In this document: positions 3,017 to 3,516 of the stretch, one piece after another
Layout of the letters: each line of letters opens with the position of its first letter
Position numbering within the stretch: the first letter of the stretch is position 1
Assembly: GCA_034521815.1 (NCBI GenBank)
Contig: JAXHLW010000013.1
Coordinates: 608,001 to 672,000 of the forward strand
Length of the DNA: 64,000 bases
Direction of reading: 5' to 3'
From: Trueperaceae bacterium
Lineage (GTDB): Bacteria; Deinococcota; Deinococci; Deinococcales; Trueperaceae
Made by a program: the position numbers and the translations under genes
Notes under the pieces: generated by a model
What the model was told of the DNA's origin: nothing
What the model saw: only the letters and a program-made list of their open reading frames with translations
The model's database searches: none

Positions 3017-3143
3017 CGCCTATTTCGAGCAGGCGAGGGACCTGGCCCCACGACCCTGCGGCAACCCACGGTCATGTCCGTCGGTGCTTCCTCCAGCCGG
3101 AGAGACGGCTACGATGGCCTGAAGCTCCGGGAAGATAGGGGCG
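3017..3143 (+). promoter_or_regulatory. SAM-I (S-box) riboswitch
   Basis: Consensus elements occur in order: ccTAT..GAG, GAGGGA-cct-GGCCC, GA-ccc, GGCAACC, GGTGC..TCC, a P4 ccggag/ctccgg stem and closing AGATAGG. It lies upstream of metY-metX. Confidence 0.9.
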
Positions 3144-3220
3144 AAAGCCTCGTCTTCGTGTCCAGTCCTCCAGCGTGCGCGCGATGCGCATGCGCCGACG
3201 GGGACGGAAGGAGGCGAGAG

Positions 3221-3298
3221 ATGGACCGCATCTCGACGAACGAACGGAACGGGGACCCGCGGCGGACGCTGCGAATGTCCTGCGCGGCCGCACGCTGA
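3221..3298 (+). CDS. Candidate leader peptide/uORF MDRISTNERNGDPRRTLRMSCAAAR
   Basis: AGGAGG at 3209-3214 sits 6 nt before the ATG. Met and Cys codons lie near the end. It is located between the riboswitch and metY. Confidence 0.55.
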   Translation: MDRISTNERNGDPRRTLRMSCAAAR

Positions 3299-3516
3299 CG
3301 GACGGCCGGCACCGGGTCGCGGACGACGCGACCTGACCCACGGACCCTGCCGCTCGGCCTGCGAGCCGCCACCGAGCCCACGCATCCATCCACCGGGATG
3401 CGTGGCGTCGTCGTGTGCCACGCGCCGCTGCGCGACCCGGCTCTCGACACCCCCGTGTACCGACGATCGCATCCTCGGTCCGGCATCCCCGGACCAGCAC
3501 ACCAAGGAGATCCTCC

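Follow-up and report, generated by a model that had tools for sequence, protein, structure and literature searches.

Between a SAM-I riboswitch and metY: a conserved Arg-Met leader reading frame in the Trueperaceae as the probable target of the switch

The classical leader-peptide attenuators (trpL, hisL, thrL, leuL, and pheL) carry runs of regulatory codons, and the position of the ribosome on these codons decides whether transcription reads through. In pyrBI of Escherichia coli, the ribosome on a leader open reading frame (ORF) blocks a terminator hairpin, with coupling set by polymerase pausing that is sensitive to uridine triphosphate. Salmonella mgtA combines a Mg2+-sensing leader RNA with mgtL, an ORF with proline codons, and with Rho, whose involvement has been demonstrated. 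Riboswitches that bind S-adenosylmethionine (SAM) are, of course, usually viewed as acting directly on the first gene that follows them. Here, we consider the leader of metY in a 64,000-nucleotide (nt) stretch of forward-strand DNA from a Trueperaceae bacterium (GenBank assembly GCA_034521815.1, contig JAXHLW010000013.1, positions 608,001 to 672,000; "the window"), where a SAM-I aptamer is followed by a short leader ORF (uORF) and a long gap before metY.

Relevant precedents are few. In the part of the published account drawn on here, expression of ppe2 in Mycobacterium tuberculosis requires translation of a uORF that is controlled by a translational OFF riboswitch for B12, the coupling being mainly by termination and reinitiation (PMC11260477). 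A review of tandem riboswitches describes SAM-I riboswitches paired with a methionine-specific T-box in leaders of methionine genes, where low SAM and uncharged tRNA-Met are both needed for expression; the terms "leader peptide" and "uORF" occur nowhere in that review (PMC9481103). The portion used of a report on the SAM-II riboswitch of Sinorhizobium meliloti metA describes a sequestered Shine-Dalgarno (SD) site far upstream of the real start, with a terminator between, which serves a translation that starts 74 nt downstream in the same frame (PMC9373788). Full-text searches of the literature found no account of a methionine leader ORF under the control of a SAM-I riboswitch, nor any report of riboswitches from Truepera. 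Thus, the riboswitch-gated Arg-Met leader ORF of the Trueperaceae is apparently an undescribed layout.

We propose, with moderate confidence, that the Trueperaceae leader is a composite, in which a translational SAM-I riboswitch targets the uORF, whose ribosome in turn controls a transcription-stopping hairpin before metY. If so, a whole family routes its SAM-I riboswitch through a leader ORF rather than onto the first gene. The parts on which this proposal relies are the following, in window coordinates.

3017..3141, + strand: SAM-I (S-box) aptamer (RF00162, 61.9 bits against a gathering score of 44.4, full model 1-108)
3131..3157, + strand: switch helix predicted in silico for the SAM-free state, in which the 3' strand of aptamer helix P1 (3131-3142) pairs with an anti-SD segment (3147-3157)
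3149..3157, + strand: anti-SD segment that, once SAM binding has closed P1, is predicted in silico to pair with 3210-3218
3209..3214, + strand: SD site AGGAGG of the uORF, 6 nt 5' of its ATG
3221..3298, + strand: the uORF, 25 codons, ending R-M-S-C-A-A-A-R-stop (RRTLRMSCAAAR), from the ORF list and in-frame conservation in the family
3272..3278, + strand: invariant codon pair CGA-AUG followed by a pyrimidine (CGAATG plus C or T in 80 of 80 distinct leaders; CGAATG itself was the selection criterion, yet it is invariant among metY leaders)
3281..3371, + strand: hairpin 1, whose 5' arm spans the last uORF codons and the stop (fold, family conservation, covariation)
3517..4818, + strand: metY, a Cys/Met-metabolism enzyme of the O-acetylhomoserine sulfhydrylase type that depends on pyridoxal phosphate (PLP) (PF01053, 428.9 bits, residues 6-429)

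An earlier note, made from the letters of this DNA, had reported the SAM-I aptamer, roughly 370 nt between it and metY, and a 25-codon ORF with a strong AGGAGG ribosome-binding site in that gap. All of this is borne out: the aptamer is the single RF00162 match in the whole 2.63-Mb genome (13 contigs, 71.05% G+C), metY is the first long gene 3' of it, and the end of the aptamer lies 375 nt from the metY ATG (3517). The gap holds no detectable second riboswitch or T-box, as no Rfam family other than RF00162 matched between 2850 and 3650, even at E<=10.

Because the genome is 71% G+C, a 25-codon open frame is by itself unremarkable, and the case that the uORF is above chance rests on comparison with relatives. 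RF00162 was scanned against 128 Trueperaceae genomes, 99 of which had a match (a tally that includes the unpublished G118, of which no sequence was used), and 108 SAM-I aptamer loci from 89 Trueperaceae genomes in 30 genera were compared. Of the 108 loci, 81 have the hexamer CGAATG somewhere in the 260 nt that follow the aptamer (81 of 89 genomes, 27 of 30 genera); its 445 occurrences on both strands of the 2.63-Mb genome predict about 0.02 per 260-nt leader. In every one of the 81 it is read as Arg-Met in frame with an SD-like site and an ATG, GTG, or TTG, with no stop between, while the other two frames pass the SD and start test in 2 and 2 loci. Judged by this comparison, the uORF is a real, conserved reading frame, because its SD and start are in frame so much more often than those of its competitors. 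Like the leader ORF of a leader-peptide attenuator, it is short and appears to have its own ribosome-binding site.

What is conserved is the frame, and not the peptide. Across the family the uORF ranges from 8 to 51 codons, with no conservation upstream of Arg-Met, and anything from 2 to 45 codons separates its start from CGA, always a whole number of them. The stop comes 9 nt from the C of CGA in 23 loci, 18 nt from it in 44, and later in 14, including those of the window's genus, where the window's own stop codon is 3296-3298. The nearest relative of the leader (L132, MetY 89% identical) has a uORF of the same length with many substitutions at all codon positions. Its SD and start codon are identical to those of the window, and its insertions and deletions fall only outside the uORF: it lacks 23 nt just before the SD and has 8 nt more just after the stop. 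(L132 lies on a contig titled Phycisphaerales, probably a binning error.)

The tail of the L132 uORF reads RMSHAAAR, with His in place of Cys. The earlier note had expected an RMSC-like motif to recur in short ORFs downstream of RF00162 aptamers, and had suggested that Cys-tRNA might be sensed there. The short ORF does recur, as does its Arg-Met; Ser and Cys vary, so that nothing points to sensing of Cys-tRNA, and this suggestion is not supported.

What does the riboswitch act upon? The anatomy of the family, together with predicted folds, indicates that its expression platform hides the SD of the uORF, and not that of metY. The leaders come in two types. In the proximal type (29 of 81), the uORF starts no more than 12 nt from the end of the aptamer, and all 29 have an SD-like tetramer within the last 12 nt of the aptamer, which is the 3' strand of P1. 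In the distal type (52 of 81), a GCCTC lies no more than 24 nt after the aptamer in 45 leaders, and a GGAGG-type SD precedes the uORF start in all 52. The window itself folds in two alternative ways. When 3128-3230 is folded, a hairpin is predicted at 3131-3157, in which the P1 3' strand pairs with GCCUCGUCUUC, and the SD is unpaired in the centroid structure. When 3143-3230 is folded, as if P1 were closed, 3149-3157 is predicted to pair with 3210-3218 (GGAGGCGAG) at -39.7 kcal/mol, which buries the SD. The P1 3' strand would thus take part in mutually exclusive pairings, as expected of a SAM-I riboswitch, and the switch-helix sequence 3131-3157 is 100% identical in L132. The energy z-scores across leaders are modest (n=42), with means of -0.64 for anti-SD with SD and -0.62 for P1 with anti-SD. 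One leader (L019), with a 62-nt gap and no uORF, carries a GCCUC/GGAGGC platform that would act directly on metY.

Since closure of P1 either exposes the anti-SD or buries the SD, a closed P1 must shut down translation of the uORF. Before methionine genes, a SAM riboswitch works as an off-switch. This, in turn, means that uORF translation must favor expression of metY. The earlier note had offered control of uORF translation by the riboswitch as an alternative to its preferred view; it is this part of the alternative that fits the anatomy.

The uORF ends within a hairpin. Hairpin 1 of the window folds at -54.3 kcal/mol (z -3.72; none of 200 shuffles folds as well), and at its base GCGGC (3284-3288) pairs with GCCGC (3365-3369). 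The base begins 12 nt after CGA, and the bases at +12 to +15 pair downstream in the minimum-energy fold of 79 of 81 leaders. Covariation was scored on 29 compact hairpins from 15 genera, trimmed at their predicted 3' ends, a choice that leans towards structure; with that in mind, 73.4% of cells at 11 pairs are paired, against 32-46% when the partners are slid, nine pairs are changed on both sides (35 cells), and none of 500 shuffles reaches the observed values. (Six of 35 compact hairpins were left out: L057 as a near-duplicate, and L060, L064, L097, L102, and L119 as differing in architecture.) A test of duplex energy, in which the arm from +10 to +23 was compared with shuffled downstream sequence, gave a mean z of -0.80, against -0.02 for a control arm. 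By contrast with the trimmed alignment, MAFFT with RNAalifold on fixed 88-nt windows of 28 leaders misaligned the 3' arms and found only 3 trivial pairs. On these comparative data, hairpin 1 is conserved and covarying across the family.

In relatives with lower G+C content, the hairpin looks like an intrinsic terminator. In leaders below 62% G+C, T is in excess in the 10-nt tails that follow the stem (124 observed, 78.6 expected), with at least five T in 12 of the 32 tails (for example, TTTGTTTTTG and TTTTTTCCTG). These tails were scored separately because a simple terminator scan, whose rules exclude bulges and long loops, also misses the leader hairpins of three lower-GC leaders (L091, L075, and L078).

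Twelve nucleotides before the hairpin base stands the codon pair that defines the element. Conservation at the nucleotide level, scored on the 80 distinct leaders, extends somewhat beyond it: a purine precedes CGAATG in 72, and after CGAATGY (Y, pyrimidine) and five variable bases comes GCGGC, each position of which is kept in 58-71 leaders (exact in 47 of 81). The residue after Met may be Pro, Ser, Leu, Phe, Arg, Cys, or Gln, and the first base of its codon is always C or T. Within the uORF, then, only Arg (as CGA), Met, and a codon starting with C or U are invariant. Among the Arg codons of 536 long ORFs, crudely collected from the genome, CGA makes up 7.1%. The complement of CGAAUG occurs in 6 of 81 leaders, against 6.0 expected from shuffles, and a pairing partner for the hexamer was therefore rejected. 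A minority codon that is nonetheless invariant, a pyrimidine that is fixed while its residue varies, and the want of a partner together suggest a constraint at the level of codons. GCGGC, for its part, is retained even in the 23 leaders where the stop at +9 precedes it. From these patterns, what appears to be under constraint in Arg-Met is the codons in their context, and in GCGGC the RNA itself. Elsewhere in the window's genome (G000), the only match to CGAATGY-N5-GCGGC lies on the minus strand of C13, near 892270.

These parts suggest a mechanism in three steps. When SAM is bound, P1 would close, and the SD of the uORF would be lost either within P1 or, in the window, to the anti-SD at 3149-3157, paired with 3210-3218. 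The uORF would go untranslated, hairpin 1 (3281-3371) would form, and the transcript would end, or be silenced, before metY. For this step the anatomy is observed and the function is what we infer. When SAM is low, the helix 3131-3157 would form and the SD would be free. A ribosome translating the uORF would then run as far as the base of hairpin 1 and keep it open as RNA polymerase passes, and metY would be transcribed. If the ribosome simply covers the stem base in this way, no antiterminator is required; a possible alternative pairing in the window, 3367-3379 with 3395-3407, involves a second hairpin that is not a family feature.

The third step is the least certain. Here, CGA-AUG-Y, standing exactly 12 nt before the hairpin base, would be a slow decoding site, at which a shortage of charged Met-tRNA would prolong the stay of the ribosome. 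Full expression of the operon would then require both SAM and Met-tRNA to be low. The invariant Met codon is plausibly compatible with sensing of Met-tRNA, and probably adds such an input. The two-input gate of the earlier note survives to this extent: SAM would be read by the aptamer through the uORF, Met-tRNA is compatible with the invariant codon, and Cys sensing is not supported. Only tentatively would we go further, to a purpose-built sensor of Met-tRNA one codon in size, with a minority Arg codon in the P site, Met in the A site, a weak pyrimidine context on the 3' side, and a termination hairpin 12 nt away; with the SAM-I aptamer it would make a minimal gate for low SAM AND low Met-tRNA, without a T-box, in 27 of 30 Trueperaceae genera.

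Routing through a leader ORF would let a translational switch govern transcript elongation, and would make room for a second input. If Met-tRNA is indeed sensed by the Met codon, then a single codon, in a suitable context and suitably spaced from a hairpin, would suffice for attenuation. It would also explain how cells with ample methionine avoid de-repressing its synthesis when SAM is low. For annotation, it would be worth searching the long "empty" stretches that follow riboswitch aptamers for such ORFs. The Trueperaceae include a cultured species, and the model is therefore testable at the bench; records titled Truepera radiovictrix and Truepera sp. (L162 and L164) have the uORF.

How does this compare with the systems already described? 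With the classical attenuators the leader shares a short, SD-driven ORF that contains a codon for the end product and that ends in or near a hairpin, which here would stop transcription unless the position of the ribosome allowed read-through. It differs from them in having one Met codon, set as CGA-AUG-Y, where they have several clustered together; in having no conserved 2:3 antiterminator that we could find; in having its ORF gated by a riboswitch; and, in the window, in having no U-run. As in pyrBI, a ribosome on the leader ORF would physically prevent a hairpin. In pyrBI, however, the ORF crosses the whole terminator, while the uORF here ends in the 5' arm, and the coupling here would be set by the SAM aptamer and perhaps by Met-tRNA. 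The logic proposed is the same as that of the tandems of SAM-I and T-box, except that the T-box binds tRNA directly, whereas the second sensor here would be a translating ribosome. The likeness to mgtA is that a ligand-sensing leader RNA and a short ORF reporting amino acid supply would act together on premature termination; ligand, amino acid, and phylum are different.

The two remaining systems are more distant in one respect or another. The ppe2 riboswitch has another ligand, and no conserved end-product codon is reported for it in the part of the account drawn on here (PMC11260477). Nor would termination and reinitiation of the ppe2 type be expected in the window, where the uORF stop (3298) and the metY ATG are 218 nt apart; a uORF that overlaps metY is found only in the variant leader L021. 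The metA leader of S. meliloti has an aptamer of another class and, in the portion of the report used, no separate closed uORF (PMC9373788).

Several observations weigh against the composite leader, or against its third step. The regulatory Met codon is single, where classical attenuators have runs. One natural variant (L113) has ACG in place of AUG. The geometry of the ribosome is also a concern. With CGA in its P site, a ribosome may come up against a stem that begins 12 nt downstream but not melt it, in which case a Met-starved stall would favor the hairpin, the wrong sign for homeostasis. Hairpin 1 of the window is followed by no U-run (its tail is CCGAGCCCAC), and none of 47 high-GC leaders, the window's included, has a tail with five or more T. 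The simple scan for terminators and promoters found nothing in 2700-3700. Canonical sites of a hairpin with a T-run are not in excess in genome G000 (174, against 255 in a block-shuffled genome). The duplex-energy signal is weak in GC-rich leaders, and strong only in those with lower G+C. The 150-300 nt or so of poorly conserved leader after the hairpin are left unexplained. Related genomes are, of course, not independent, and counts such as 81 of 108 loci overstate the number of independent observations. Last, no sequencing run contained more than 39% of the sampled words; in three RNA libraries and one DNA run, 3033-3340 and parts of metY are matched only by short contigs of relatives and 3366-3493 by none, which makes these data uninformative on transcription, transcript ends, and termination.

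The lack of a U-run bears most directly on what ends the transcript. In the window's 71% G+C genome, the terminating agent may be Rho, a possibility raised by that very lack, or it may be a hairpin without U. A first alternative thus keeps the riboswitch-gated uORF and replaces the terminator with Rho-dependent polarity: Rho would load on C-rich RNA and terminate in an untranslated leader, unless a ribosome, translating the uORF or halted at its end, blocked access, and hairpin 1 would serve as a pause or positioning element. This is the alternative that survives best, although we think it unlikely. The genome has a rho gene (576.7 bits, above the cut-off), the lack of a U-run is common to all the high-GC leaders, and canonical terminators are, as noted, not in excess genome-wide. 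Control of Rho termination by a riboswitch or a leader peptide is established elsewhere, in mgtA/mgtL and tna. The RNA after the uORF does have more C than G, with a skew of +0.19 in the window; the mean across leaders is +0.105, and 65 of 73 have a positive value. This skew is on average no larger than that of the metY coding sequence, however (+0.09 in the window, +0.117 on average), and it is not distinctive as a mark of a Rho loading site. Further, the U-runs directly after the same hairpin in lower-GC relatives point to intrinsic termination there, and the 218 nt between the uORF and metY would leave naked RNA for Rho even when the uORF is translated.

A second alternative also keeps the gated uORF, but makes SAM the sole input. 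CGA-AUG-Y would then be a generic programmed pause, or a context for opening the hairpin or terminating translation. That there is only one Met codon is what such a view expects. Stable structures at certain downstream spacings slow translocation, and the fixed 12 nt to a stable stem resembles such a spacing; the variant with ACG keeps CGA and the frame, which again fits. A generic pause, however, has no need of an AUG that is invariant in 80 of 80 distinct leaders from 27 genera. It would also not account for the company that the element keeps, before methionine-forming enzymes and not before other genes, nor for the uORFs rich in Met and Cys that precede metY in other phyla. For these reasons we regard a gated uORF that ignores methionine as rather improbable.

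The gene distribution just invoked is sharp. The element is found in 69 of 70 leaders of MetY orthologs (at least 66% identical), the exception being L019, whose short platform was described above. It is found in 5 of 12 leaders of a MetY paralog that is 42-48% identical, and in 3 of 3 leaders (L015, L088, and L095, of one genus) that precede an ORF for a homocysteine S-methyltransferase, confirmed by PF02574 for L015 and L088; other genera have metY at that place. Four further carriers are on contigs that end early, so that the downstream gene is not visible. Conversely, none of 19 SAM-I leaders with another ORF downstream has it. Seven of those 19 were scanned with Pfam, which identified MTHFR (metF) in five, SAM synthetase (metK) in one, and a SAM hydroxide adenosyltransferase (SAM_HAT) in one; whole ORFs were used, as N-terminal pieces of 40 residues had been uninformative for 3 of 5.

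The variant with ACG deserves a description of its own. In L113, of the genus Truepera, a leader ORF some 40-115 nt after the aptamer ends CGA-ACG-CCC-TAG, giving Arg-Thr for Arg-Met, and precedes a MetY paralog that is 47% identical.

Outside the family, SAM-I leaders linked to metY were compared from four other families of the order; all five have short gaps (77-140 nt) and lack an Arg-Met ORF. Nor was such an ORF found in any of 29 non-Deinococcota metY loci, retrieved independently by MetY similarity. In a crude scan, at least 6 of those 29 (L173, L175, L184, L186, L188, and L189) have short ORFs rich in Cys and Met upstream of metY, with tails such as ...CCCC, ...MMACCC, and ...MPMCMCR; in L189, a SAM-I aptamer (429-536) lies upstream of that ORF. 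The Trueperaceae leader differs from these in its single Met codon in a fixed context.

A third alternative gives up the reading frame. CGAAUGY...GCGGC would be an element purely of RNA, a motif that binds a protein or a ligand or a second aptamer, with the open frame incidental. That GCGGC is kept where a stop precedes it, and that CGA and the pyrimidine after AUG are fixed as nucleotides, would suit such an element. We nevertheless hold it to be very improbable, since it would leave to coincidence both the in-frame SD and start of all 81 loci (against 2 and 2 for the other two frames) and a distance from start to CGA that changes only by whole codons from 2 to 45, and since neither an Rfam match at E<=10 nor an enriched partner for CGAAUG was found. 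That the uORF encodes a micropeptide acting in trans is harder still to credit, for although its SD is strong and its presence conserved, its length of 8-51 codons, an N-terminal part that is unconserved even between closest relatives, and only two invariant residues leave little for such a peptide to be.

The remaining features of the gap are the following.

3352-3357 and 3372-3377, + strand: complementary stretches GCTCGG and CCGAGC
3378..3405, + strand: hairpin 2 (fold), CCACGCATCC (3378-3387) with GGATGCGTGG (3396-3405), then CGTCGTCGTGTG
3477..3495, + strand: small hairpin upstream of the metY SD, GGTCCGG (3477-3483) with CCGGACC (3489-3495), from the sequence, which folds as a stem
3504..3509, + strand: SD site AAGGAG of metY, from the sequence

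At the position of hairpin 2, L132 has a hairpin of another sequence, and this closest relative is alone in keeping the structure; the CGTCGTCGTG tail occurs in only 2 of 74 leaders, and a second hairpin bearing it was rejected as a family feature. The small hairpin at 3477-3495 is not kept in L132. Thus, the hairpin array of the earlier note is present in all its named members, and does not hold as a feature of the family; the one hairpin that is kept (3281-3371) was not on its list.

Within the window's genus, the leader takes another form in L021 and L172. There, the ORF has 50 codons, with Arg-Met at codons 3-4, and overlaps the first 17 nt of metY; the GCGGC hairpin base is missing. This arrangement suggests direct translational coupling to metY in that species.

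Downstream of metY in the window, a second Cys/Met-metabolism PLP gene (4829-6224) is split across two frames, with PF01053 profile positions 2-215 in ORF 4829-6097 and positions 227-380 in ORF 5664-6224. The split is a frameshift, and reflects either a real pseudogene or an assembly error. It is followed by a metX-like gene of the alpha/beta hydrolase fold (6221-7586), which apparently continues in another frame: ORF 7392-7586 resembles, by eye, the C-terminal end of a homoserine acetyltransferase, and this 64-residue piece has no Pfam match. Here, there may be a second frameshift in the metY operon.

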